Of a stretch of 31,834 nt of DNA, positions 3,157 through 28,110 are shown piece after piece. Made by a program: the position numbers and the translations under genes. Numbering within the stretch: the stretch's first letter is position 1; each line of letters starts with the position of its first letter. The notes beneath the pieces were generated by a model, which was not told where the DNA came from, made no database searches, and was given only the letters and a program-made list of their open reading frames with translations. This stretch comes from a virus. Taxonomy: Duplodnaviria > Caudoviricetes. The stretch covers positions 1 to 31,834 of IMG/VR virus record IMGVR_UViG_3300002907_000005, one strand, 5' to 3'.

Positions 3157-3372
3157 CTATCTCCTCTTGGCCTTCGCTGCGGCGTGGGCGGCGCAGGCGT
3201 TGATAAACGTCTGCCATCTTGAGCGCTGCCAAGACTTAATGTGCAAATCTCCAATGCCATCCTCAGATAATCCTGGATAGCCCATGAGCGGCGCATCTAG
3301 AACATCATAAAGTCTCATCGCCGCCCGCTCCACCCTCCGCAGCGTGTTCCGGCTCTTGCGGGGAGAGGTCAT
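3157..3372 (-). CDS. Hypothetical protein
   Basis: ATGA-coupled 71-aa ORF with AAGGAG RBS. Confidence 0.55.
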   Translation of the reverse strand: MTSPRKSRNTLRRVERAAMRLYDVLDAPLMGYPGLSEDGIGDLHIKSWQRSRWQTFINACAAHAAAKAKRR

Positions 3373-3758
3373 CGCGGCTCCTTCGCGTCAGGCGGGAGGT
3401 CATATATCCATTGGCGAGCGATTTCACAGAGCGCAACGAACACGGCGTCCTTATCGCGCTCCAGTTGCCCAAGCTGCGCGTAAGGAACAAGGTCTGGATG
3501 CGTCTTGACCTCGCGGTCATACTTCTCGCCGAACGTCCAGCCCATCGCGAAATAAGCTTGCATCCAACTTCCGTGAAGCTCCTCGGGCGATGCGGAACGT
3601 TGCGGCCCGCATTGGCGCGAGATTACGGGCAGGAACTGACTGCGGAAGGCATCCTCACGTTCAGCCCATAGCACCGGAATGACGGGTGCACCAGCGGCCT
3701 GCGCGGCAAGCCTCGCGGCGTTATAGACAAATTCTGCACGGCGTTCATTCAAGATCAT
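3369..3758 (-). CDS. RyR-domain protein
   Basis: HGSW...GWTFGEKYD..KTHPDLVPYAQL...ERDKD matches the RyR repeat consensus; GGAGG RBS before ATG 3758. Confidence 0.8.
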   Translation of the reverse strand: MILNERRAEFVYNAARLAAQAAGAPVIPVLWAEREDAFRSQFLPVISRQCGPQRSASPEELHGSWMQAYFAMGWTFGEKYDREVKTHPDLVPYAQLGQLERDKDAVFVALCEIARQWIYDLPPDAKEPR

Positions 3759-3759
3759 C

Positions 3760-3972
3760 TCATCTCCTCCCTGTGCGCTTGCGCTTGAGAGCGGCGGCGC
3801 GTGTAATCTGCTCCGCAAGTTCCCATCCCACTTTGCGGACCGCCTCGTGCAAAATGTGTCCCGTAGCGTAGAGTCCGCGACGATGCGCCTCATGGTGAAT
3901 CGCTATCAGACGCGGAACGAAATCGTTGCGTGAGTCGTACAGCGCCCGCAAGGTCTTGGCGGAGGCGGTCAT
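3760..3972 (-). CDS. Hypothetical protein
   Basis: ATGA overlap with the exonuclease stop. Confidence 0.55.
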   Translation of the reverse strand: MTASAKTLRALYDSRNDFVPRLIAIHHEAHRRGLYATGHILHEAVRKVGWELAEQITRAAALKRKRTGRR

Positions 3973-9065: not shown

Positions 9066-9584
9066 ATGAGGCGCGCGGACTTATCCAAGCGTCTGCGCGA
9101 TCAGCTTGCAGAAGCGCGTGCTGGCAATGCGTTCGTCGATGCCATATACGGCGATGGCAAGCCGCCGCAGGTTGTGTATCCGCCCGAGAAGCCGAAGCGG
9201 GAGCGGAAGGTGCGTGACGAGCTGGTGCCGAGCGAGCATCAGTCACAATGCGCGGTCATTTCGTGGTGGCGCTTGGCTCATGCAGGCTATGGGCTGCCAG
9301 AGTTTGCACTATTCGCCATCCCTAATGGGGGTGCACGTGATCCAATCACCGGCTCGCGGCTTAAAGCCGAGGGCGTACGACCAGGTCTCCCTGATTTGAT
9401 GCTGGCGGTGAAGCGCGGGCATTACGGCGGCCTTGTCATCGAGATGAAGAAGATCGGCAACCAGACTAACACCACGCAAAAGGAAGTGCTCGCTTACTTT
9501 GGCCGAGCCGGTTATGCGTGGGAAGTGTGCTGGACAGCGGACGCGGCAATCGCCACAATAAAGAGTTATCTCGCTGCATCGTAG
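9066..9584 (+). CDS. VRR-NUC domain nuclease
   Basis: EH..Q, LFAIPNGG.R, LKAEGV.PG.PDL, IEMK, Q...L......GY. Confidence 0.88.
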   Translation: MRRADLSKRLRDQLAEARAGNAFVDAIYGDGKPPQVVYPPEKPKRERKVRDELVPSEHQSQCAVISWWRLAHAGYGLPEFALFAIPNGGARDPITGSRLKAEGVRPGLPDLMLAVKRGHYGGLVIEMKKIGNQTNTTQKEVLAYFGRAGYAWEVCWTADAAIATIKSYLAAS

Positions 9585-9782
9585 TAACCTAGGGGGGCGC
9601 ATGACCAATGGCGATCTGATAGAGGAACTATCGCGCTATCCTAAACACTTATCCGTCAAAGTCGTGATAAGCGAAATCTGGTCATGCCTCAACTAGGTTG
9701 TAACCGTCCAAGGGAGATAGACGATGGGCCATAGGGCTAGAATTGCCCACTATCTAGGGCGAATCCTCAGGGAGGATTGGTC

Positions 9783-10355
9783 ATGCGCAATTGGACGTAT
9801 TGGGATTGGATTGCTTACACGGGACTCGCGTTCTCTGTTCTTATTCCTGCGGCTAAAGATGGACTAAAGGAACTTTCGGTGGGCGCTACTCCGCAATATC
9901 TATTGTCGCCAATCTGGACATTCCTGCCTGCGATCCTCTTTATTGGGGCCACTTGCATTCTGATTGCAAGGGCGTTTGGGTGGATTGGCGGTAATTCATC
10001 TCGTCTAGGTTCATGGTCTGACAAGATGGAACCTATAAACGAACGAACTTATCTTAATGAGACGATAGAAATAGACGGGAAAAGTTTTAACCGATGCAAA
10101 TTTACCAATGTGAAATTTTTCTATCGCGGGACGGGACCAGTCGCGGTTATTGAGTGCGAAATTCAAGGCTCGCTAGCCATCGAAACTGATAGCAAAGGCG
10201 CCCATACCTATTACATGCTATCGGAACGTCTCCAGAGTTCTTCTTCTCGGGTTGTTATCGGCACGCGCAATCCCGTCTCCGGCGAAATTAAAGTCTTTAG
10301 CACGATGACTCGCAACCCCGAGCAAGCCGATCAATCCGATAAGCAGAAACGTTAA
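9783..10355 (+). CDS. Passenger membrane protein (two N-terminal hydrophobic segments, C-terminal beta-rich domain)
   Basis: Two TM-like stretches; NETIEIDGKSF..C.F.NV resembles a pentapeptide/beta-helix segment; lower GC than the flanks. Confidence 0.75.
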   Translation: MRNWTYWDWIAYTGLAFSVLIPAAKDGLKELSVGATPQYLLSPIWTFLPAILFIGATCILIARAFGWIGGNSSRLGSWSDKMEPINERTYLNETIEIDGKSFNRCKFTNVKFFYRGTGPVAVIECEIQGSLAIETDSKGAHTYYMLSERLQSSSSRVVIGTRNPVSGEIKVFSTMTRNPEQADQSDKQKR

Positions 10356-10433
10356 CACGCTCTAATTGTCGCGCCGAAAATGCTAGGGTTCATTCAGCTA
10401 GTTTCGCGATTCATATGATTTCCTCTCAAGCAT

Positions 10434-10462
10434 ATTATTCACTTTAAGAGGATTGTAGTCAA
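10434..10462 (-). promoter_or_regulatory. Leftward promoter inside the element
   Basis: TTGACT (10462-10457), 17 nt, AATAAT (10439-10434), followed by GAGAGGA SD and ATG 10414. Confidence 0.5.
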
Positions 10463-10526
10463 GCATAAAGTTCAGTTTAGAAAATACTAAACGTAAGTCA
10501 TTGAACCTGTTTACCTTTTATAGGTA

Positions 10527-10556
10527 TTGACGGGTTAACTAGAAGAATCAGATAAT
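10527..10556 (+). promoter_or_regulatory. Rightward promoter inside the element
   Basis: TTGACG, 18 nt, GATAAT, with an AT-rich upstream region. Confidence 0.6.
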
Positions 10557-10562
10557 TACAGA

Positions 10563-10801
10563 CGCAAAAAGAGGGCGGACCGGGGGAGACTCCAACTCCC
10601 GACTTCCCGCTTAGTAGGCGGGCACTCTATGCGACTGAGTTACCGGCCCTCCAAATGCAGCACCACCACGACCTACGCGAGTGATCTTTTCTAGGGACTT
10701 GCTCGCGTAGGTCTTCTCTTTCATGGCCCGCGCACGGTGGGTTACCGGACGATCAGATGGGCTAGCTGGTTCGTGTCTCTAGGGCGCTTTAAGCGGGCCA
10801 T
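10563..10801 (+). ncRNA. Candidate structured ncRNA (cloverleaf-like domain plus two long stems)
   Basis: GAGGGC/GCCCTC (10571/10651) closes three hairpins; 12-bp perfect stem 10670-10681/10702-10713; 9-bp stem 10723-10731/10793-10801; no ORF of 60 aa or more. Confidence 0.5.
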
Positions 10802-11168
10802 CCGAACATTCTATCCCGCACCTTCCAGGCTAGTCCCGCGCTGTTTCAATCAAACTGAGGCATGACCCGAAATCTATGGCGCGCAAGACCTCGCGGGCGA
10901 CTTCAACGATGAATACCGGATCGAGTTGAATAGGGAGGATGCCATAGAAGCGGAGGCGGTCATCCACATGGGCAACTTCCTCCTGATCGAGAGCAAATAG
11001 CATGACCACCGCATCCTCAGCTGCCGCAATTCTCCCGCGCGTTCATGCGGCACATGCTGTAGAATCTTAGCTTGCCGGTGACGGCTCGGTTTAAAGCGCG
11101 AATGGGTTGATCGCCCCGCCACGCCGCAACGTGGCTAGCGCCCGAACAATTACCTTTGCGGAGGTTCT

Positions 11169-11810
11169 ACGAACTTCTATAAGCACTATCTTGGTGACTA
11201 TGCCAGGGACACGGCGCATCTCTCAGTCACCGAACATGGCGTCTATCGCCTCCTGATGGACCATTACTACGCGCTCCTCAAGCCTCTACCTGACGATTTT
11301 GCCTATCTTTGCCGCGTTGCAAAATGTCACTCAAGGCATGAAAAGGCCGCTTTGAGATCAATTCGAGATCAATTCTTCGACATCATCAACTGTCAACTTA
11401 GACACACACGCATAGACCAAGAAATCCTTAAATATCAACAAAACTCCGATACGAACCGTAAAGCAATCGAATCGAGATGGAATACGAACCGTAATACCAA
11501 GCCAGAAGCCAGAAGCCAGATACCAGAAGAATCTAAGTCAACACCATTAGCTTCGAGCCCTAACGGGCTCTCGGCTGGTCTCAATGGCAAAAGCGTTGCT
11601 TACATTCCGCTAGTGGACGGAACTGAATTCGGGCTTTCAGAAGGTGAGTTGGACGAGCTAAAGAAGGCCTACCCGGCTCTTGACTGCAAGCAGACAATGC
11701 TTGAAATCAGGGCATGGTGCATAGCTAATCCAACAAGGAAAAAGACCAGGAGAGGCGCAATGCGGTTCATCAATTCATGGATGGCTAGGCTTCAGGATCG
11801 GGCGCGCTGA
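11169..11810 (+). CDS. YdaU/DUF1376-family phage replication initiator-like protein (ACG start)
   Basis: (M)NFYKHYLGDYARDTAHLSVTEHGVYRLLMDHYY is the family N-terminus; C-terminal W..ANP.R.KT..G..RFI.SW; GGAGG precedes ACG; in-frame TAG at 11136. Confidence 0.85.
   Translation, partial: TNFYKHYLGDYARDTAHLSVTEHGVYRLLMDHYYALLKPLPDDFAYLCRVAKCHSRHEKAALRSIRDQFFDIINCQLRHTRIDQEILKYQQNSDTNRKAIESRWNTNRNTKPEARSQIPEESKSTPLASSPNGLSAGLNGKSVAYIPLVDGTEFGLSEGELDELKKAYPALDCKQTMLEIRAWCIANPTRKKTRRGAMRFINSWMARLQDRAR
11449..11527 (+). repeat. Iteron-like repeats within the replication gene (putative origin)
   Basis: ATACGAACCGTAA at 11449 and 11482 (33-bp spacing); AGCCAGA x3 near 11500-11520. Confidence 0.5.
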
Positions 11811-15093: not shown

Positions 15094-15256
15094 GTTGCTG
15101 ATGCAGCATCTGGTGCCTGCTGGTCCTGCGCCAGCGCAGAGGGTGGCGGGGGTGCTGCCTGGGAGGAGTCCATCGCAGGAGGATTTCCTGCTGCAGCAGT
15201 TGCGTGCTCAGAGCGATGTGAAGAGTCTGGAAGCGCTGTTCCAGAAGTACAAATGA
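15080..15256 (+). CDS. 58-aa hypothetical protein
   Basis: GAGGA RBS plus GTG; ATGA overlap with the epimerase gene. Confidence 0.45.
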   Translation: MSLLELLMQHLVPAGPAPAQRVAGVLPGRSPSQEDFLLQQLRAQSDVKSLEALFQKYK

Positions 15257-16122
15257 GGTACTTGGTTCTAGGCGCTTCGAGTTTCTACGGTTCGAATTTC
15301 TTGAAATTCCTGCAGGAAAAAGGTGAGGATGTCAAAGGACTCAGCCGCCCCGAGTTTGATCTGCGCAAGGATTTCATGGTCCCCAACGCAGATATCGTCG
15401 TCAACTTCATTGCCGAGAGTCTTGTTGCCGAATCTTGGGAAGACCCCGAGCGCTGGCTCGAAACGAACGTCGTATGCACCAACCGGCTATTTGAGGAAAT
15501 ACGCAAGAAGGAAATAGGCCTCTACATCCATATTTCCACGCCGGAAGTGTATGGGTCGAACACCCACTGGATGAAGGAGCGCCGCGACTACCTGCCGGCG
15601 ACGCCGTATGCGGTCTCCAGAGCCGCAGCGGATATGATGCTGCAAGCCTACTGGAAGGCTTACCGTTTCCCCATGATTATCACCAGGACTGCGAATATCT
15701 ATGGCAAAGGCCAACAAGATTTCAGGCTCATCCCGAAAGCGTTCTCCTTGCTGGCATCCGGAATGCCCTTTCCAGTCCGCGGGACTGGGCGTTCTCAGCG
15801 TAGCTTCATCCACGTTCGAGATGCAGCCCGAGCACTATATGTGCTTTCCAAAGACGGAAAAGCCGGAGAGCACTACCACATCTCGACCCGGAAGCAACAC
15901 TCGATCCTAGAAGTCGTGAGGATGATCTGCAAGATATTGGGTAAGGGCGAGGTTGAGTTTGAAAAAGACAGACTCGGGAAAGACCATGCCTACCTGCTGA
16001 ACTCGGACAAGATGAGGGCGTTGGGCTGGTACGATCAGATCGAGCTTTATGAGGGGTTAAGAGATTATGCAGATCATGGCGGTTTCCTTGAAGACAGCAG
16101 AAGATTTCTTGTCGAAACATGA
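15253..16122 (+). CDS. NAD-dependent epimerase/dehydratase (dTDP-glucose 4,6-dehydratase-like extended SDR)
   Basis: VLGASSFYG nucleotide-binding variant, AES.V..SW, ISTPEVYGS, PYAVSR (YxxxR), R..N.YG..Q, RSFIHV.D, DR.GKD..Y. Confidence 0.9.
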   Translation: MRYLVLGASSFYGSNFLKFLQEKGEDVKGLSRPEFDLRKDFMVPNADIVVNFIAESLVAESWEDPERWLETNVVCTNRLFEEIRKKEIGLYIHISTPEVYGSNTHWMKERRDYLPATPYAVSRAAADMMLQAYWKAYRFPMIITRTANIYGKGQQDFRLIPKAFSLLASGMPFPVRGTGRSQRSFIHVRDAARALYVLSKDGKAGEHYHISTRKQHSILEVVRMICKILGKGEVEFEKDRLGKDHAYLLNSDKMRALGWYDQIELYEGLRDYADHGGFLEDSRRFLVET

Positions 16123-16333
16123 AAGACACTATAAGGCTCCCGTTGAACCTGTCTGCGCCATAGGGGTTGGCGATGAAACCGGTCTCCATGGCGCAGCAGT
16201 CCTCGGAAGAAACGGCGAAGATGCAGAACTTGCCCATATCTATTGCGACGGAGCCTCCCAAGCCTATAGCCTCCTATACGGAGCTTGCTGGCGCACCCTC
16301 AAAGCCTTGGGGTACAAAAAGGCCGTTCTGTGA
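16067..16333 (+). CDS. Short XF1762/Mom-like GNAT-fold protein
   Basis: A..F...H.RH...P, G.A..GR, ..DG....S.LYGA.WR...ALGY pattern; shorter than typical members. Confidence 0.55.
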   Translation: MQIMAVSLKTAEDFLSKHERHYKAPVEPVCAIGVGDETGLHGAAVLGRNGEDAELAHIYCDGASQAYSLLYGACWRTLKALGYKKAVL

Positions 16334-16337
16334 GCGT

Positions 16338-16976
16338 CTGAGGGTTTTCGAGGAATATATCCTCGCGCATCTGGAAGAAATTCGCTGCCCAGTTCACCTT
16401 TCTCTAGGTCAGGAGCTTGTGTCAGAGGCTATCCATCGAAATATCCTTAAAGGCGATTGGCTATTCTCTACTCATAGAAACCATGGACATTATCTAGCGA
16501 AGGGCGGGAGCGAAGACAGGCTGTGGGATGAAATATGCGGTTTGGAGACTGGAATTAATCGCGGTATGGCAGGCAGTCAGTGTTTCTCCGATCCTGCGAT
16601 AAACTTTCACGCGAGTTCAATTGTCGGCGGATCGATCGGTATTGCCGTGGGCGCGGCTTTTTCGTTGAAGGGAAGCGGAAATCTGGTCGTGTGCTGCCTG
16701 GGAGATGCCGCCACAGAGCAGGGGGTCTTCTGGGAAGCATTGAATTTTTCTGCATTGAAAAAACTCCCCATTTTTTTTATCTGCGAAAATAATCGATTGT
16801 CCATTGATGTCCCCATTGTGGAGCGTCAGACTGTCGGCATAACCCGGAGGGTCAAGACCTGGATCGAGATAGCGCCGACCATAAAACAAGGTTTCGAGAT
16901 GGGCAGAATAGCCCCGATGTTTCACGAAGCCTTTGTAACCAGAGAGGGGAAGCATTGCTATTTTCAGAAGAAATAA
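16338..16976 (+). CDS. ThDP-dependent dehydrogenase E1 alpha-like subunit (shortened)
   Basis: R.FEE, PVHLSLGQE, STHRNHGHYLA, SSIVGG, GDAATEQG...CENN ThDP motif. Start uncertain: CTG 16338, or ATG 16221 overlapping the previous gene. Confidence 0.88.
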   Translation: MRVFEEYILAHLEEIRCPVHLSLGQELVSEAIHRNILKGDWLFSTHRNHGHYLAKGGSEDRLWDEICGLETGINRGMAGSQCFSDPAINFHASSIVGGSIGIAVGAAFSLKGSGNLVVCCLGDAATEQGVFWEALNFSALKKLPIFFICENNRLSIDVPIVERQTVGITRRVKTWIEIAPTIKQGFEMGRIAPMFHEAFVTREGKHCYFQKK

Positions 16977-17461
16977 ATAAGGCTCTGGACGAAGCCCTGA
17001 AGGATGAGAGGACACTGCTATGCGGACAACTCGTGAACTACGGTCATTCAGCCCTAACCCGTGGGCTGGAGAAGAAATATCCGAATCAAGTGGTGACCTA
17101 TCCGGTGGCGGAGAATTTGATGAATGCGAGTGCGATGGGGATGAGCTTGGCGGGCAAGAGACCGATTGTATTGCATGAGCGCTTCGACTTCGCCTTAGTT
17201 GGAATGGACGCACTTATCAACCATATTGCGATCTGGCCGAAGAAATGCGCAATGAAATTGCCTTTGGTGATGATGATAGTGGTGGGACACGGTAAAGGTC
17301 AGGGACCGCAGCAGAACAAGGATTTCACTGGATGGTTCAGGGAAATGGAGGGCTGGACTGTCCTTGAGCCGCGTCTTCCTGGATCGGCCTCCGTTGCTGT
17401 TCACGCTGCGACTCTTGCCGAGTCTCCGGTAATGCTCATTATCCATCGGGAGCTGTATTGA
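16955..17461 (+). CDS. ThDP-dependent E1 beta-like subunit (pyrimidine-binding domain only)
   Basis: KYP..V..YPVAEN...A.G.SLAG.RP...R.DF......N, GQGPQ; lacks the transketolase C-terminal domain. Confidence 0.85.
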   Translation: MLFSEEINKALDEALKDERTLLCGQLVNYGHSALTRGLEKKYPNQVVTYPVAENLMNASAMGMSLAGKRPIVLHERFDFALVGMDALINHIAIWPKKCAMKLPLVMMIVVGHGKGQGPQQNKDFTGWFREMEGWTVLEPRLPGSASVAVHAATLAESPVMLIIHRELY

Positions 17462-18057
17462 TCTTTCCCGATGGTTCGATGGCCGGATATAGCTGGGAGA
17501 ACGATCCGAAGCGCTTTGCCTTCACCTGCGCCAGATACAAATTCATTGCGAAGATGGTAGAGGGCATGGACAAGGTGCTGGAGGTCGGCTGTAATGATGG
17601 GTTTTTCTCACGCATCGTCAGACAGCATGTAAATCATCTGGTAGGAATGGACAATGACCCGAAGGCTGTTGAACTCGCCAAGGAGATGAACTCTGAGAAA
17701 TGGAACATCTACTTTCAGCAGTGGAGCATACTGGATTCGACAGTGTTGTCTCAGCCAGGGTTCGATGCTGTGTATTGCCTGGATGTATTCGAGCACATAA
17801 AGGAGGAGGATGTTCTTCTACAAAATCTCGTATTTTTTGCTCCTATGTGCATTATCGGCACTCCTAGCCTTGAGTCTCAAATATATGCTTCTCCGGTATC
17901 TAAAGCGGCGCATGTTAATACGGTTACGAAATCACAACTCCGAACCAAGATGAAGAAATATTGGAAGCATGTTATTTGCTTCGGGATGCAGGACGAGGTT
18001 CTTCATACCGGCAAAGACGAAATGTGCAATTATATTTTCGGTCTTGGGTTCAAGTGA
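17458..18057 (+). CDS. Class I SAM-dependent methyltransferase
   Basis: RYKF..KM, VLEVGCNDG, D.DP, FDAVYCLDVFEHI. Confidence 0.88.
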   Translation: MIFPDGSMAGYSWENDPKRFAFTCARYKFIAKMVEGMDKVLEVGCNDGFFSRIVRQHVNHLVGMDNDPKAVELAKEMNSEKWNIYFQQWSILDSTVLSQPGFDAVYCLDVFEHIKEEDVLLQNLVFFAPMCIIGTPSLESQIYASPVSKAAHVNTVTKSQLRTKMKKYWKHVICFGMQDEVLHTGKDEMCNYIFGLGFK

Positions 18058-19115
18058 AACTCCCTCGTCCTGAGCCTGCCCTCGGCATCTTGGCCTACGC
18101 CCAAGAGCGCGATCTGTGCGTCAACATGGATCGCAGGAAGGCCGATAACTGGCGCTCCTATATCCAGACTAAGAATCTAGGCTGGCGCTCGACGATTGGC
18201 TATTTACCGATCAAGCTCGATATCGAAAACTGCTCACGCTGCAATTTCGCGTGCACTATGTGCGCGGTATCGAAGTGGGCGCACGGCAAGCGCGCAGACG
18301 ACATGACGCTGGAGGAATTCAAGGCGCTCATCGATGAGCAATACGGTTTGGTCGAGATCAAACTGAACGGCCTGGGCGAGGCTTTGATGCAGGGGGATGA
18401 TTATTTCGAGATGGTCAAGTATGCGAGGGCCAAGCATATCTGGGTGCGGATGACCACAAACGCCTCGCTCCTGCATCTACGGGACAACTACAAAAAACTC
18501 ATCGACTCCGACGTGAACGAAATAGATATCTCGATAGACGGCGCAGACCAAAAGACATTCGAGGGGATCAGGATACAGTCTGACTTCGATCAGGTCGTAA
18601 AGAACGCGAAGCAACTGAACGATTGCTGCGCTGGGACGAGGACGAAGATGTGGACGCTGGTGCAGAAGGCCAATTATACCAATTTGGCCGAACATCTTCA
18701 TCTGGCTGACTATATGGGATTCAAGAATGTCGTGTTCTCCATGAATATGCACGGATGGGCCGACCCTGAATTGAAAAAGCGCAACGACGCCGAAATGGTC
18801 AATCTGAGCGAAGACTATATTTCGCATCTTATGGAGACCGCCAAAAACAAGAGAATTAAACTCGCGTTCTGGGATGTAAATGATAAATTCGATACCGATA
18901 TCATGCAGCACCGCTGCCCGTGGCCCTTCGAACGGGCCGTAGTGACCTCCGATCTGAGGACTGTTCCTTGCTGCATGATCGGCGATCCTGATAAATTCGA
19001 GATCGGGAAAGGCAAGACATTCCTGGTGAACTGGAAATCCGAGGAATATCGTGATTTCAGGCAGGCCCATATAGACGGAAATATTCCAGACGTCTGCAAA
19101 GCCTGCTACAAATGA
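18054..19115 (+). CDS. Radical SAM protein with SPASM/twitch domain
   Basis: CNFACTMC (CxxxCxxC), G.GE, TTNA, ISIDG; C-terminal CPWPF...VPCC...C..C; GTGA overlap. Confidence 0.92.
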   Translation: MKLPRPEPALGILAYAQERDLCVNMDRRKADNWRSYIQTKNLGWRSTIGYLPIKLDIENCSRCNFACTMCAVSKWAHGKRADDMTLEEFKALIDEQYGLVEIKLNGLGEALMQGDDYFEMVKYARAKHIWVRMTTNASLLHLRDNYKKLIDSDVNEIDISIDGADQKTFEGIRIQSDFDQVVKNAKQLNDCCAGTRTKMWTLVQKANYTNLAEHLHLADYMGFKNVVFSMNMHGWADPELKKRNDAEMVNLSEDYISHLMETAKNKRIKLAFWDVNDKFDTDIMQHRCPWPFERAVVTSDLRTVPCCMIGDPDKFEIGKGKTFLVNWKSEEYRDFRQAHIDGNIPDVCKACYK

Positions 19116-20260
19116 AGGTGCTGATTCTCGGCGGAGGATTCGCCGGAACGACGGCAGCTTATCTTCTCCAGAAAGAAGGCTATGAAGTTACCCTCATGGA
19201 GAAGGAGCCTCATCTGGGCGGCGGGTGCAGGACTTTCTTCTATGGCGGTCATCCTTTTCAATACGGCCCGAGGGTCTATTATGGATATAGCAAAAAAGTC
19301 TTTGACTGGGTTAATTCGTTCACGCCAATTCGCAGGTTTCCTTTTGAACTTAGAACCTTTGTTGAAAGCGATCAACGCTTCTACCACTACCCGATACATG
19401 AGGACGACTTGCCCTCAATGCGGGCATACGCACAGATTAAATCTGAACTCGCAGCCAGAGACAACTCCAAGGAACCCAAGGATTTCGAGGAATACTGGAT
19501 CAACCGAGTAGGGCGAACGCTCTACGATATGTTCGTCAACAACTACTCTAAAAAGATGTGGATGATCGATGACAACCGCATCTTCGACATCTTCAAATGG
19601 AGCGCCAAGGACAAGCCGATAGAGTCAGGGCCGAAGGGGACTTATAAGGATTCGATCATCGGCTATCCGTATGCCCATGATGGATACAACGCCTATTTCG
19701 ATGTGATGACGGAGAATGTCGAAGTTAGATTGAACGATTCATATTCTTGGTATGACAGGCACACTTTATCTTGCGAGGATTTCGATCTTTACATTAACAC
19801 AATTCCTATTGATGAATTTTTGGGATATGAATTTGGAGAGCTTCCATATGTTGGAAGAGATTTTCAAGTCATCATTCTGCCCTGCAAGCAAGTTTTTCCA
19901 GCGGATATCCGCTTCTGCCACTATGCGGGTTCAGAGCCGCACACCAGAATAACGGAGTTCAAAAAACTGACCTATCATGAGTCTGAAGATACCCTCTTGG
20001 TCATTGAGACCCCTTCGCATAAAAACAAGCTATATCCCTATCTCACCAAAGCAAATATGGCTACCGTGGGGAAATACCTGGATTCCCTACCACAAAACGT
20101 TTATTCCATTGGAAGGCTTGGCACGTACAAATATTCGACGATTGAGCAAACTATCTGCCAAGCATTTGAAGTGGTATCGAAGATTACGGGCAAGTCCAAT
20201 CCAATGGCAGATCAATTCTTTGGCATCGGCGACACTGCATTGATGAAAGATAGAAAGTGA
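19112..20260 (+). CDS. UDP-galactopyranose mutase (Glf)-like flavoenzyme
   Basis: GGGFAG FAD motif, LGGGC, YGP, F...YSKKMW, P..GY, TRITEFK, YP, GRLGTYKY. Confidence 0.85.
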   Translation: MKVLILGGGFAGTTAAYLLQKEGYEVTLMEKEPHLGGGCRTFFYGGHPFQYGPRVYYGYSKKVFDWVNSFTPIRRFPFELRTFVESDQRFYHYPIHEDDLPSMRAYAQIKSELAARDNSKEPKDFEEYWINRVGRTLYDMFVNNYSKKMWMIDDNRIFDIFKWSAKDKPIESGPKGTYKDSIIGYPYAHDGYNAYFDVMTENVEVRLNDSYSWYDRHTLSCEDFDLYINTIPIDEFLGYEFGELPYVGRDFQVIILPCKQVFPADIRFCHYAGSEPHTRITEFKKLTYHESEDTLLVIETPSHKNKLYPYLTKANMATVGKYLDSLPQNVYSIGRLGTYKYSTIEQTICQAFEVVSKITGKSNPMADQFFGIGDTALMKDRK

Positions 20261-21060
20261 CTAAAACGGTTCTATACGATCTATCGGTAATGCCTACTAC
20301 CTTTGATTTCGCCTGTACGGCAGTCATGGCGAAGACTTTGGGCTATGAGGAAATCAGGTTCGTCGTGGATAAGCCCATGACGGAATGGAAGTATCCGGCG
20401 AAGATAGGCTGGAGGCGTTGGGCGAATATCCTAGTTCCACTGTGCGAGTTGGCCGACCTCAGTTTCTCTGTGGGCCGCGAGATTCCCGGTGATACATTGG
20501 GTTATACGACCGGGAATGTCGAGGAGATATTCAAACGAACCGGCAAGATCACGAAATTGAGGCCAGTGGAACTGCCGGATAAGTCAGGTTATATAACAAT
20601 CACTCTAAGGCAATCATTCAGGAATGAATGGCGTAATTCAAGTCCCGATTGGCTCAAGGTCGCCGAATGGCTAAAATCAGAGGGTGAGGAAGTCTATATC
20701 CTCGAAGAATCTGAAGAAGTCCCTATCGCTATTGAAAAGCGCATGGGCATTTATTGTAATGCCAAGATGAATCTGGCCGTCGGTAATGGCCCGATGGTTC
20801 TATGTTGGCTATCCGAGGCCCCATATCTGACTTTCCAGCTTCCAAAGGGCCCGGAGAAGGAATACACCGCCTTGGTGGGACAGTGGGATCGCATGGGATT
20901 TCCAGTAGGCTCTCAACTGAGCTTTAAAAATGAAAGACAGGAAATCGTCTGGGATACTGATGACTATGAGATCGTTAAGACCCACTGCGAAAAGCACTTG
21001 TTTGACAAGAACTTAAAGAAAGGCGCAAACTCGCGCGCTAATGAACGGCATACGGCTTGA
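20257..21060 (+). CDS. Hypothetical protein, possibly GT-B glycosyltransferase-like
   Basis: Last gene of the sugar cluster; ITITLR..RN...W...A..L and A..NL.V.NGP..L loosely recall GT9-type C-terminal domains. Confidence 0.55.
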   Translation: MTKTVLYDLSVMPTTFDFACTAVMAKTLGYEEIRFVVDKPMTEWKYPAKIGWRRWANILVPLCELADLSFSVGREIPGDTLGYTTGNVEEIFKRTGKITKLRPVELPDKSGYITITLRQSFRNEWRNSSPDWLKVAEWLKSEGEEVYILEESEEVPIAIEKRMGIYCNAKMNLAVGNGPMVLCWLSEAPYLTFQLPKGPEKEYTALVGQWDRMGFPVGSQLSFKNERQEIVWDTDDYEIVKTHCEKHLFDKNLKKGANSRANERHTA

Positions 21061-25397: not shown

Positions 25398-26779
25398 TGG
25401 CCTCAGTCAGACACGCAACATCGGTTCAAGGTGCCGATGATCCTGGAAAGTCGGTACAGGCGGCACAATGGAATGAAGACCATACGCTTGTAGGCATCCC
25501 CGATCAGGCGTCATTAGATGCCGTCAGCGCAGCTGTCTCTGTTGTAGCGGCGAATCTTTCTGCATTGAGCGTCACAGTCGCCGGAATTGGCGGTGGCGAG
25601 GTTCATCCCACTTCGGCTGAGTTTGTCAGCCTTCAAGCTGACTTCTCCACTCTGAGCATTCAGGTCACGAACGTTTCCGCTGCCGTAAGCGTCGTGGCGG
25701 CAAATCTCTCCAATGAGATTTCCCTGCGTTCTTCGCAGATCAACACTGCATCCGGGGCCGTTAGTACGCTTTCTTTGGCCGTTTCAGTCGTAGCTGCTGC
25801 TCTTTCAAATGAAACCTCGGCACGTATAGCGGGCGACAACGCAGCTTCTGGAGCCGTGAGCACTCTAAGTCTTGCTCTTTCGGCTGAAACTGCCGCGAGG
25901 ATAGCGGGGGATAACACAGCCTCCGGCGCAGTGAGTACACTCAGCCTCGCAGTTTCGGTGGTTGCAGCTGCGCTCTCGAATGAAATTTCTCTCAGATCAT
26001 CCCAGATCAATACAGCTTCTGGTGCTGTAAGTACATTGTCTCTAGCTGTATCTGTGGTAGCGGCGGGACTGTCAAACGAAATCTCCGCAAGGAATGCGAC
26101 AAGCAATGCTATTAGCACTATGAGTCTTGCCGTTTCAGCAGCAGAGGCCCACGCCGCCGCCGCTTCCGCTGCTGTCAGCACTTTGAGCCTTGCGGTTTCG
26201 GTTGTGGCCGCGCAGCTTTCTGCTACTAGCGTTCAAGTAACGGCAGTCTCTGCTGCGGTGTCAGTGGTCGCTGCTGGCTTGAGCGCACTGAGCATTCAAG
26301 TCTCTACCCTTTCGGCGCAGATGACCTCACTTGTCGCATCCAAGATCGTAATGCTTGGAGCACAGACAATATCGGTATCGGCTCTAACCAATGTTTCCGG
26401 GCAAGCATTCTCGGTAGGGGCGAATAATACCTACGCTTTCAAGTATATGATTATTTACCAAGCCGCCTCGACTGCTACAGGGTTGGGAGTGAGCGTGACC
26501 TTCCCTGGGATGAAGACATTTGCGGCTACTGCCTATATCACTTCTGGTGCGACCGGAACTGCGAACACATTCTCTGGGCCTATAACGGCCTCTGGAACTA
26601 AGATTCAAGCTCTAAGCTGTCAGACTGCCGCGACGGACTTTTACGCCGTGATAGAGGGAGCTTTCCAGGTATCTACTTCAGGCACCTTGCAGCTTCAGGC
26701 CGACTCTGGAGTTGGCGGGACTTCTGCTCAGGTCATCATCAGGCCAGGAACATTCGGAATGGTATGGAGGGGCGCTTGA
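25397..26779 (+). CDS. Fibre-like protein with Ser/Ala/Val coiled-coil repeats and C-terminal beta domain
   Basis: N-terminal WN.DH; repeats AVSTLSLAVSVVAAALSNE; E..AR..GD; C-terminal GTLQLQ. Confidence 0.75.
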   Translation: MASVRHATSVQGADDPGKSVQAAQWNEDHTLVGIPDQASLDAVSAAVSVVAANLSALSVTVAGIGGGEVHPTSAEFVSLQADFSTLSIQVTNVSAAVSVVAANLSNEISLRSSQINTASGAVSTLSLAVSVVAAALSNETSARIAGDNAASGAVSTLSLALSAETAARIAGDNTASGAVSTLSLAVSVVAAALSNEISLRSSQINTASGAVSTLSLAVSVVAAGLSNEISARNATSNAISTMSLAVSAAEAHAAAASAAVSTLSLAVSVVAAQLSATSVQVTAVSAAVSVVAAGLSALSIQVSTLSAQMTSLVASKIVMLGAQTISVSALTNVSGQAFSVGANNTYAFKYMIIYQAASTATGLGVSVTFPGMKTFAATAYITSGATGTANTFSGPITASGTKIQALSCQTAATDFYAVIEGAFQVSTSGTLQLQADSGVGGTSAQVIIRPGTFGMVWRGA

Positions 26780-28110
26780 AGCGTCTTGATGTCCTAAAGA
26801 CGAAGGTCAATACCTCTTACTGCATTTCTGATGAGCGCAGGGATCAGCAGATGCGTCTTTCGAACGCGCGGATCAATGGCAGAGTTCAGCCAGCAACGCA
26901 GATTTATGACGAAGAAATAGCCATTGTCTGCTACGGGCCGTCCCTGAGAAAAACTTGGACAACAATAAAATCCTTCAAGAAGATTATGACTTGCTCTGGA
27001 GCGCATAAATTCCTCTTGGAAAGAGGGATCATGCCCACTTGGCACGTTGATCTAGACCCGCGCGAGCATAAAACTAAGATGCTCGGAGAGCCTCACAAAG
27101 ATGTCGAATATCTGATGGCGTCATGTTGCCATTCGAGCATGTTCGATAAGCTTGAAGGCTTCAATGTGAAACTGTGGCATATCTACGCCAATGAAACGAA
27201 TAAGGAGCTTCCCAGGACTTACCCGCGCGGCGACTGGATTCTGACCGGCGGCAATAATGTCGGGATGAGGTGTCTAGTGATGGCGCGTCTTTTGGGCTAC
27301 CGGAACTTCAATATCTTTGGCATGGACTGTTCCTTCCCCAAGCATGGTTCCCACCATGCTGATGCCCACCTGAATCCATCATCAAGGATTTATGAGACCC
27401 CATACGACGGGAAGATGTACTACTGCGAGCCAGTGATGCTTGACTATGCGCGTAATTTCTTCCATGAAGTAGAGCAGCTTCCAGATGTGACGATCAAGAT
27501 GCACGGCGAGGGCCTCTTGCAGCATATGGTCTACAAGAAAATGGGCGACCAGATAAAGGTCAAACCCAAGGCCGTGATTGCGTTTTCAACTCCAGTGACG
27601 ATCACGCCAGCATACGTAGAATTGAACAAGAAGATGCACCTGAATCCGATCTATGGGATCGGTGGAAGGGCGCGTAAGGAAGTAGTTTTGAAGCTCTCAG
27701 AGGCCCTGAACACGCGCTCCATTCTTGATTACGGCTGCGGGAAAGGAACCTTGGCCGCGAGCCTAGCTTTCCCTATTTGGGAGTATGACCCGGCTGTGCC
27801 CGGCAAGGATTCAGTGCCTCGTGCTGCTGATCTGGTCGTGTGCCTGGATGTGCTGGAGCACATCGAACCAGAGATGCTGGATAATGTCTTGGGCGATCTC
27901 GTCAGATGCTCGAACAAAATGCTCTTTGCCATCATAGACACCGGCCCAGCGGAAAAGGATTTGCCTGATGGCCGTAACGCTCACCTAATCCAGCAGGATA
28001 AAGACTGGTGGCAGGAGAGGCTGGGCAAATTCTTCAAGATCGGGGCAATCCTCCAGACCGGGCCTGAGCTTCATTGCGTCCTTGAGCCTAAGAAGATGGG
28101 GCCATTGTGA
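26776..28110 (+). CDS. Maf/DUF115 (MptE-like) domain fused to a SAM methyltransferase
   Basis: IVCYGPSL, GI.P..HV.LDPR, GG..VG, LGYR.F.IFGMDCS; C-terminal ILDYGCGKG, DLVVC.DVLEHIEP, GRNAHLI. Confidence 0.8.
   Translation: MKRLDVLKTKVNTSYCISDERRDQQMRLSNARINGRVQPATQIYDEEIAIVCYGPSLRKTWTTIKSFKKIMTCSGAHKFLLERGIMPTWHVDLDPREHKTKMLGEPHKDVEYLMASCCHSSMFDKLEGFNVKLWHIYANETNKELPRTYPRGDWILTGGNNVGMRCLVMARLLGYRNFNIFGMDCSFPKHGSHHADAHLNPSSRIYETPYDGKMYYCEPVMLDYARNFFHEVEQLPDVTIKMHGEGLLQHMVYKKMGDQIKVKPKAVIAFSTPVTITPAYVELNKKMHLNPIYGIGGRARKEVVLKLSEALNTRSILDYGCGKGTLAASLAFPIWEYDPAVPGKDSVPRAADLVVCLDVLEHIEPEMLDNVLGDLVRCSNKMLFAIIDTGPAEKDLPDGRNAHLIQQDKDWWQERLGKFFKIGAILQTGPELHCVLEPKKMGPL

Follow-up and report, generated by a model that had tools for sequence, protein, structure and literature searches.

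Two questions are raised by a short insert in a small phage gene: how did a segment with transposon-like ends and no transposase gene arrive there, and what could be the role of the tRNA gene that it carries, whose anticodon does not agree with the identity predicted from its other nucleotides? The window analyzed here (the whole stretch of 31,834 nucleotides, positions 1 to 31,834 of IMG/VR record IMGVR_UViG_3300002907_000005) is a phage contig with P22-like portal, terminase, capsid and ERF/YqaJ genes.

A recent insertion in a small phage gene

The insert spans positions 9680–10867 (1188 bp), and its inverted ends agree perfectly over 12/12 bp and at 20/25 positions without gaps. The left terminal inverted repeat (9680–9704, + strand) corresponds to the transposase-distal end of the parent element and is of the type found in intact IS1-like relatives, and the right one (10843–10867, − strand) corresponds to the parent's upstream end and is present in other Logan contigs with different flanks. 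The sequence CGAAATCT lies on both sides of the insert as an 8-bp direct repeat, with the left copy of this target-site duplication at 9672–9679 and the right copy at 10868–10875 (both + strand). When the window was scanned for direct repeats flanking inverted repeats at a spacing of 200–6000 bp, this was the only 8-bp direct repeat around an inverted repeat longer than 6 bp; three pairs with an inverted repeat of at least 5 bp were found in all, and the two besides the insert have 6 and 5 bp.

Removal of the insert and one copy of the duplication restores a 67-codon ORF that starts at 9601. The N-terminal and C-terminal parts of this split gene (9601–9679 and 10876–11000, respectively, both + strand) encode polypeptides that are identical at 22/26 and 37/40 positions to residues 1–26 and 28–67 of P0002, an uninterrupted 67-aa homologue. 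The initial annotation of this DNA had described the same ends, duplication and restored ORF and had read them as a recent insertion into an intact phage gene; all three features are borne out at 9680–10867, and the reading is supported, with the uninterrupted homologue now in hand. Chimeric assembly, a doubt that it had raised itself, is answered by a single 1612-nt Logan contig that bridges both junctions with zero differences (runs X1 and X2), although these runs are possibly the window's own source, so the contig argues only against a chimeric join. No direct empty site was found in runs X1, X2, X3 and X7. The insertion is real and recent. Runs X1 and X2 also contain a related phage that has neither the 67-aa gene nor the insert (region 9559–10999) and has 39 other nucleotides there.

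Descent of the insert from an IS1-like transposon

A pattern made from the acceptor stem of the insert's tRNA gene (below) was used to scan metagenomes, and seven loci were found: three chance matches (L038, L041 and L042), one that is the window's own locus (L039) and three true relatives (L040, L043 and L044), which have the RNA, spacer and promoter in common with the window and then continue into a transposase gene. In L044 this gene encodes a 274-aa protein and is followed by a convergent passenger gene and an inverted end; the L040 transposase matches that of L044 at 67%. The best NCBIfam match of the L044 transposase is NF033558 (IS1) with an E value of 7.7e-13, its 48.8 bits being below the cut-off of 100, and its Pfam match, PF03400 (E 5e-4), is also under the cut-off. 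Plasmid proteins 51–56% identical to it are annotated as IS1 family transposases. Its matches at E ≤ 0.1 include no IS1595 family of Pfam or NCBIfam, so that of the IS1/IS1595 likeness proposed in the initial annotation the IS1 half stands and the IS1595 half does not; judged from these matches, the parent of the insert is IS1-like and not IS1595.

The window has the end features of the IS1 family, inverted ends that start with GGT and an 8-bp target duplication, and of the transposase gene of an autonomous IS1 element only the start and the tail persist. This relic (10390–10414, − strand) joins the first three codons to the last ~7 across a 6-bp microhomology at 10411–10406; its start matches L040, L043 and L044, and its tail codons correspond to the C-terminal end of the transposase of L044. 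Thus the earlier statement that the insert has no transposase is correct in that it contains no transposase ORF, but it overlooked the relic. The transposase ribosome binding site persists at 10426–10421, as does the orphaned promoter (TTGACT-17-AATAAT, 10434–10462, − strand; promoter scan), which precedes the transposase ATG in L040, L043 and L044. This promoter now faces the 3′ end of the cargo gene, and between 10462 and 10355 it would give an RNA antisense to the cargo.

A second deletion, near 10745, left a 19-codon relic of a small basic passenger gene (10742–10801, − strand). The relic matches the N-terminus of full-length ORFs of 70–80 aa that many relatives have close to their left end, and one Logan relative runs on into the full passenger ORF at 10745. 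Both internal deletions, of the transposase and of the small passenger, leave the tRNA unit whole. On these alignments the insert derives from an IS1-like transposon by two deletions, in agreement with the initial proposal of a nonautonomous element with IS1-type ends, and the transposase could have been lost by internal deletion after insertion. In another element, L108, the small basic passenger gene is also cut just before a hairpin and a tRNA, ~426 nt upstream of the transposase.

The initial annotation also proposed mobilization in trans, which would be expected to place the double-deleted form in other target sites; exact-pattern scans of viral, genome and metagenome sequences gave no further copy of it. 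Scans with the terminal inverted repeat pattern gave 15 viral and 19 genome matches; besides the virus itself (L001 and L002), none of the 41 neighboring ORFs scanned is a transposase, so these matches are mostly due to chance and were rejected as relatives. One contig has a 337-bp MITE-like pair (L022:6001–6337) whose ends resemble the right end of the insert and whose duplication agrees at 6/8 positions. Scans of viral contigs with the tRNA pattern returned the same virus only, and BLASTN with 10350–10875 gave no plasmid match and three unrelated phage tRNA-Asn matches.

We take the closest kin to be the IS1-family elements with passenger genes, presumably the ISMhu11-like group (name after Siguier, Gagnevin and Chandler), and presumably the insert is comparable to the nonautonomous mobile insertion cassettes of the same authors. 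Like the passenger-bearing elements it has GGT-type inverted ends and an 8-bp duplication, and its parents have an HTH+DDE transposase of ~275 aa with passengers up- and downstream; unlike them, it has lost the transposase and carries a tRNA plus predicted antisense unit. Phage-borne cassettes that lack a transposase are ordinary, and what is unusual here is the tRNA cargo.

The cargo protein

The initial annotation had proposed a protein plus RNA cargo, and this is supported: the insert has an ORF of 190 aa from the ATG at 9783 (9783–10355, + strand, convergent with the former transposase) and a tRNA gene. An AlphaFold2 model of the protein (pLDDT 90.8) has an N-terminal helical hairpin followed by a domain of short-strand repeats, and the hydropathy profile has one strongly hydrophobic segment, in the helical hairpin. 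A first homologue search returned the protein itself alone, and it is in fact a member of a large unnamed family (642 homologues at E ≤ 0.001) that matches phrog_26297, of unknown function. It matched no Pfam family and no PADLOC defense system, and fold comparisons gave a best Foldseek E of 0.12 (pentapeptide-like rows) and a best VIA Z of 6.3 that covers the helical hairpin only. The protein is absent from all other loci that were fetched, and L044 has a different one in its place; it looks like an exchangeable downstream passenger.

The tRNA gene and its predicted antisense RNA

The tRNA gene (10576–10649, − strand) is found by both Rfam (RF00005, 56.2 bits, E 5e-11) and ARAGORN, and its 7/5 cloverleaf is also the minimum free energy fold of 10576–10649 (−32.2 kcal/mol). 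The anticodon is ACU (A34 at 10615), which reads the serine codon AGU, and the gene has a 5-nt variable arm, A20, G3·U70 and G73 and does not encode CCA. Recognition by SerRS needs a long variable arm (PMC9976931), and the 5-nt arm is not that of a tRNA-Ser. Table 1 of the same source gives A20, C35, U/G36 and A/G73 as arginine determinants, C3-G70 as a minor one, and G3·U70 as the alanine determinant; all four nucleotides of the ArgRS set (A20, C35, U36 and G73) are present here, and the C3-G70 pair is replaced by the alanine pair G3·U70. According to PMC8007984, tRNA(ACU) is an isoacceptor universally missing from bacteria and phages, and phages lack the same isoacceptors as bacteria. The elbow of the window tRNA is swapped to C19/G56 relative to the universal G19-C56, and some Logan relatives have C56. 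We take bacterial tRNA-Arg(UCU) to be the nearest scaffold: it has the D-loop A20, C35, U36 and short variable arm in common with the window tRNA, which differs from it in A34 (which shifts decoding to the serine codon AGU), G3·U70, C19/G56 and the missing CCA. Any one of the C19/G56 elbow, the missing CCA or G3·U70 in place of an Arg-type C3-G70 could inactivate the window tRNA.

The missing CCA, the odd elbow and the forbidden anticodon would also be expected of a decayed tRNA pseudogene that is carried as a passive passenger. The tRNA, however, is nearly perfectly conserved (74/74 identical in L044, 74/74 in L043 and 73/74 in L040) while its 5′ flank has diverged (77, 56 and 55/81 in the three relatives), and compensatory changes are found in stems. 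Conservation of this kind appears already to have largely refuted the pseudogene reading, to which we give very little weight.

The tRNA lies on a predicted sense transcript. A U-run at 10566–10573 (− strand), kept in 4/4 members of the clade, would close it, and a weak sense promoter predicted from sequence and absent from the promoter-scan list (10808–10837, − strand; −10 TAGAAT at 10813–10808) has its −10 hexamer 7 nt before the ATG of the passenger relic and would also transcribe the tRNA. The 5′ leader of the tRNA is complementary to its 3′ trailer (10570–10652), both being invariant in 4/4 sequences, which would permit an acceptor helix that is longer or of another form ahead of the U-run. 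Folding of 10560–10867 as a single RNA gave z values of 0.01 and −0.83, and one large RNA is unsupported.

On the opposite strand, the promoter scan found a predicted promoter (TTGACG-18-GATAAT, 10527–10556, + strand) 19–20 nt beyond the tRNA 3′ end, both hexamers of which are invariant in 4/4 clade members; its predicted start is 13 nt past the tRNA 3′ end. A predicted terminator (10670–10722, + strand) consists of a 12-bp hairpin and a U-rich tail, and the hairpin (10670–10713) has compensatory changes in 4/12 pairs and none broken in a comparison of just four related sequences. The conserved promoter and covarying terminator together predict a second RNA, a ~160-nt cis-antisense transcript (10563–10722, + strand) that would be complementary to the entire tRNA and is a candidate antitoxin. 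Two earlier claims are modified by these results. The two divergent promoter sites exist, but they are the orphaned transposase promoter and the antisense promoter over the tRNA gene; and the structured RNA candidate is indeed an RNA gene, but a tRNA with mismatched identity that is paired with a predicted antisense RNA.

A survey of IS1-like relatives

Transposase loci were gathered from viral contigs (the second viral draw being the best 80 of 203) and in four phylum-level draws of 401, 401, 301 and 301 genomes, whose central loci carry the titles Acidobacteriaceae, Alphaproteobacteria, Desulfococcaceae and Nitrospiraceae; the loci are those of the matches that were fetched, a part of the total. 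Identical proteins, loci below 45% identity and loci with less than 300 nt upstream were left out, which gave 181 elements; two of these, from unpublished genomes (L087 in G157 and L177 in G788), have no tRNA and count in denominators only. By pattern, 23/181 elements have a tRNA on the transposase strand in the 600 nt before the transposase gene, and the count is 24 when one found by ARAGORN (L173) is added; an additional ARAGORN match, in L212, was false and was dropped. Since three of the 24 bearers had been located by way of their tRNA, the figure without this bias is 21/178. At control positions one tRNA was counted on the other strand, two and one on the downstream side, and zero and two farther upstream. 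In half of the bearers (12/24) the tRNA is enclosed by both ends and an 8-bp duplication. On a tree of the 179 transposases of at least 150 aa the bearers are scattered, with 17 changes across the tips compared with a shuffled mean of 22 and minimum of 17, and this recurrence of the same design in scattered lineages is a further argument against a pseudogene.

The simple rules used to assign identity cover five amino acids, namely Ala, His, Ser, Leu and Arg. A call was possible for 23 of the 29 tRNA genes, with none for the other 6/29, and in 23/23 the called identity does not match the anticodon or the anticodon reads a stop codon. Arg-type scaffolds have ACU in five elements and GCU in three, and UCU or CCU occurs in 0/29 of the tRNA genes; the anticodons of L073, L095, the second gene of L203 and L209 are uncertain. 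The anticodon loops are mostly canonical, and CCA is encoded in 6/29. Some elements (L095, L110, L111 and L203) have two to three irregular tRNAs each, and in several of these tRNAs the D-arm is reduced and the acceptor stem is Ala-type. The IS1-like elements L090, L108 and L136 (and L209 by one parse) have tRNAs of Ala- or Leu-type scaffold whose anticodons read stop codons. TGA is the stop codon in 3/3 of the UUA-suppressor elements counted (L090, L108 and L136) against a background of 68/111, which is not significant, and none of the internal stops in five transposases lies beside a matching suppressor.

An antisense promoter with a score of at least 9 lies just past the tRNA in 13/24 bearers, compared with 25/155 matched windows (p 1e-4); with the window's clade collapsed the count is 11/22 (p 8e-4), shuffles gave a mean of 2.05 and a maximum of 7, and the sense strand gave 0/24. 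An antisense hairpin with a U-run was found in 11/24 bearers and 3/60 sampled controls by a finder that misses visible cases such as L040. When 11 tRNA-less elements were chosen for their strong antisense hairpins, two had a hidden tRNA (L073 and L090) and nine had none. Some antisense promoter 70–190 nt upstream of the transposase is present in 16/24 tRNA-bearing and also in 62/157 tRNA-less elements, and a general divergent promoter may therefore account for some of the signal.

Such divergent promoters in tRNA-less elements would suit a reading in which the tRNA fold is a non-decoding RNA element (a signal for RNase P or other processing, or an insulator between passengers and transposase) and the opposite promoter is a general divergent one. 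The constant placement of the tRNA before the transposase gene and on one strand, the U-run after it, the encoding of CCA in so few of the genes and the altered elbow in the window agree with it as well. A structure-only role, however, predicts drifting or ancestral anticodons; instead the loops are mostly canonical, ACU/GCU recurs on Arg scaffolds, no identity call agrees with its anticodon (0/23), and some elements carry two to three tRNAs. The repeated choice of miscoding anticodons points to decoding activity, and we regard a non-decoding role as unlikely.

Many of the tRNA carriers are phage contigs, as might be expected if the tRNA were an anti-defense or stress factor (a nuclease decoy, a replacement tRNA or a source of beneficial mistranslation) that is switched on by release from the antisense RNA. 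Where anticodon nucleases cleave tRNAs, another tRNA could serve as a decoy or take the place of those lost. Cells can tolerate mistranslation or benefit from it (PMC9976931). A replacement tRNA, on the other hand, needs the right amino acid, and stop-reading or mismatched tRNAs would not rescue translation; that the isoacceptors missing from phages are those missing from bacteria (PMC8007984) also speaks against it. We consider this quite improbable, more so than a non-decoding role.

A candidate RNA-only toxin–antitoxin pair

The reading that we favor, at somewhat better than even chances, is that the mistranslating tRNA and the predicted antisense RNA form an RNA-only, type VIII-like toxin–antitoxin pair. 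It would work as follows: the promoter near the right end would transcribe the tRNA within a longer RNA, from which host RNase P and the CCA-adding enzyme would mature it; the tRNA, taken to be the stable partner, would be charged by ArgRS (through A20, C35, U36 and G73) or AlaRS (through G3·U70) and, lacking the long arm, would not be charged by SerRS; and arginine or alanine would be put at AGU serine codons, poisoning the proteome. The strong and probably short-lived antisense RNA would pair with the whole precursor and block miscoding, and the toxin would be freed when the element is lost or host transcription is shut off, with addiction or abortive defense as the outcome. Expression, maturation, charging and toxicity of the tRNA and its neutralization by the antisense RNA are all inferred from sequence.

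The codons that these tRNAs would target occupy invariant positions of the transposase, so an unchecked tRNA would damage the element's own enzyme, which argues that it is normally held down. Induced missense allo-tRNAs killed E. coli (PMC5389517), and according to the same source several irregular tRNAs are charged and unused in translation, or are inactive. AGU is rare (22/4852 codons in 14 phage genes), so toxicity could be limited, and it counts against the pair that automatic tests detect the promoter in just 13/24 bearers and the terminator in 11/24.

In the main rival reading the tRNA serves for recoding under dosage control: a low level of arginine at AGU would be needed for, or would tune, the element's own transposase, and the antisense RNA would set that level. 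AGT codons were predicted ahead of inspection to lie at basic columns of the transposase alignment, and they do so at position 77 of L040 (K/R 96%) and position 141 of L043 and L044 (80%); in the ACU elements 3/16 are so placed, compared with 3/226 in tRNA-less elements (Fisher p 0.004). These three matches, however, are two independent events, and L044 also has AGT at a 94%-Ser column. Out of sample the idea fails (0/4 in L210; best column 0.49 in L234), GCU elements gave 1/22 (p 0.34), and at the 0.5 cut-off there is no signal for UAG, GUA, AUA, AGU, UAU or Ala-type tRNAs. The AGT codons of the cargo fall outside basic columns, and the window has kept its tRNA without a transposase. Own-transposase recoding was rejected as unsupported out of sample, its support being confined to the window's clade, and it is in our estimation about as unlikely as a non-decoding role.

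If the toxin–antitoxin reading is extended to the survey, the elements could represent a new class in IS1-like transposons of several bacterial phyla and phages, in which a natural missense or nonsense suppressor tRNA as toxin is paired with a full-length cis-antisense antitoxin and would put Arg or Ala at Ser codons, Ser at Leu, Ile or Tyr, Ala at Gly, His at Thr, and Leu or Ala at stops; we put this wider claim at a little short of even.

Relation to known systems

Irregular tRNAs near transposons and toxin–antitoxin genes were already known (PMC5389517; PMC7609411). Those reported by Mukai et al. in 2017 (PMC5389517) are like the window tRNA in their mismatch between anticodon and identity and like the surveyed tRNAs in including UUA, UAU and G-1/Thr types, and the allo-tRNAs and polycistronic tRNA0/1/2 among them often have no CCA and are toxic in E. 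coli when active; a loose link to transposons and toxin–antitoxin loci is another likeness. The allo-tRNAs differ in having 8/4 or 9/3 folds and a long arm, compared with the 7/5 fold, short arm and Arg/Ala identity here. The link proposed in the text of that paper is to protein toxin–antitoxin systems and not to a tRNA as toxin with an antisense antitoxin. The window's D-arm motif is absent from its supplement, the text of which makes no mention of transposons, IS1, antisense RNAs or terminators, although its figures may name neighboring genes.

Type VIII systems with an RNA toxin and an RNA antitoxin on opposite strands are likewise known (TADB 3.0, PMC10767807). SdsR-RyeA and CreTA, as described there, resemble the proposed pair in that toxin and antitoxin are both RNA and lie on mobile DNA, and SdsR-RyeA also in its overlapping opposite strands, the second RNA of the window being predicted from its sequence. 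The proposed toxin is different, a miscoding tRNA and not a base-pairing sRNA or a tRNA-sequestering RNA, and no CRISPR-Cas is involved. A literature search that lay mostly outside subscription journals gave no report of an IS1-like element whose tRNA gene has a cis-antisense unit.

If the reading is true, it would give a function to the unexplained irregular tRNAs of soil metagenomes, add a tRNA toxin to the RNA-only toxin–antitoxin systems, and provide a route by which code-altering tRNAs (the missing ACU isoacceptor, stop suppressors) persist and spread between genomes, which bears on codon reassignment by way of an ambiguous intermediate. The genetic code itself would be the poison, with a mobile reservoir of code-changing tRNAs, and the ~200-nt tRNA units would be natural suppressor tRNAs with a built-in off switch.

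Other features of the phage contig

No tyrosine integrase was found in the 46-kb record, which is 35% complete. Just downstream of the split gene, the DUF1376 replication-protein gene (11160–11255, + strand) appears to begin at an ACG in frame (11169–11171) that follows a GGAGG site and precedes the first ATG by 29 codons, a start that is either mutated or non-standard. A cluster of sugar-nucleotide and modification genes lies between the small and large terminase genes (15253–21060) and includes an epimerase, a transketolase/E1-like pair, a methyltransferase, a radical SAM protein and UDP-galactopyranose mutase. The head region has an MptE-like/methyltransferase gene (26764–28110), and a phage protein with an RyR domain (PF02026, E 4.4e-9) is encoded at 3369–3893 (− strand).
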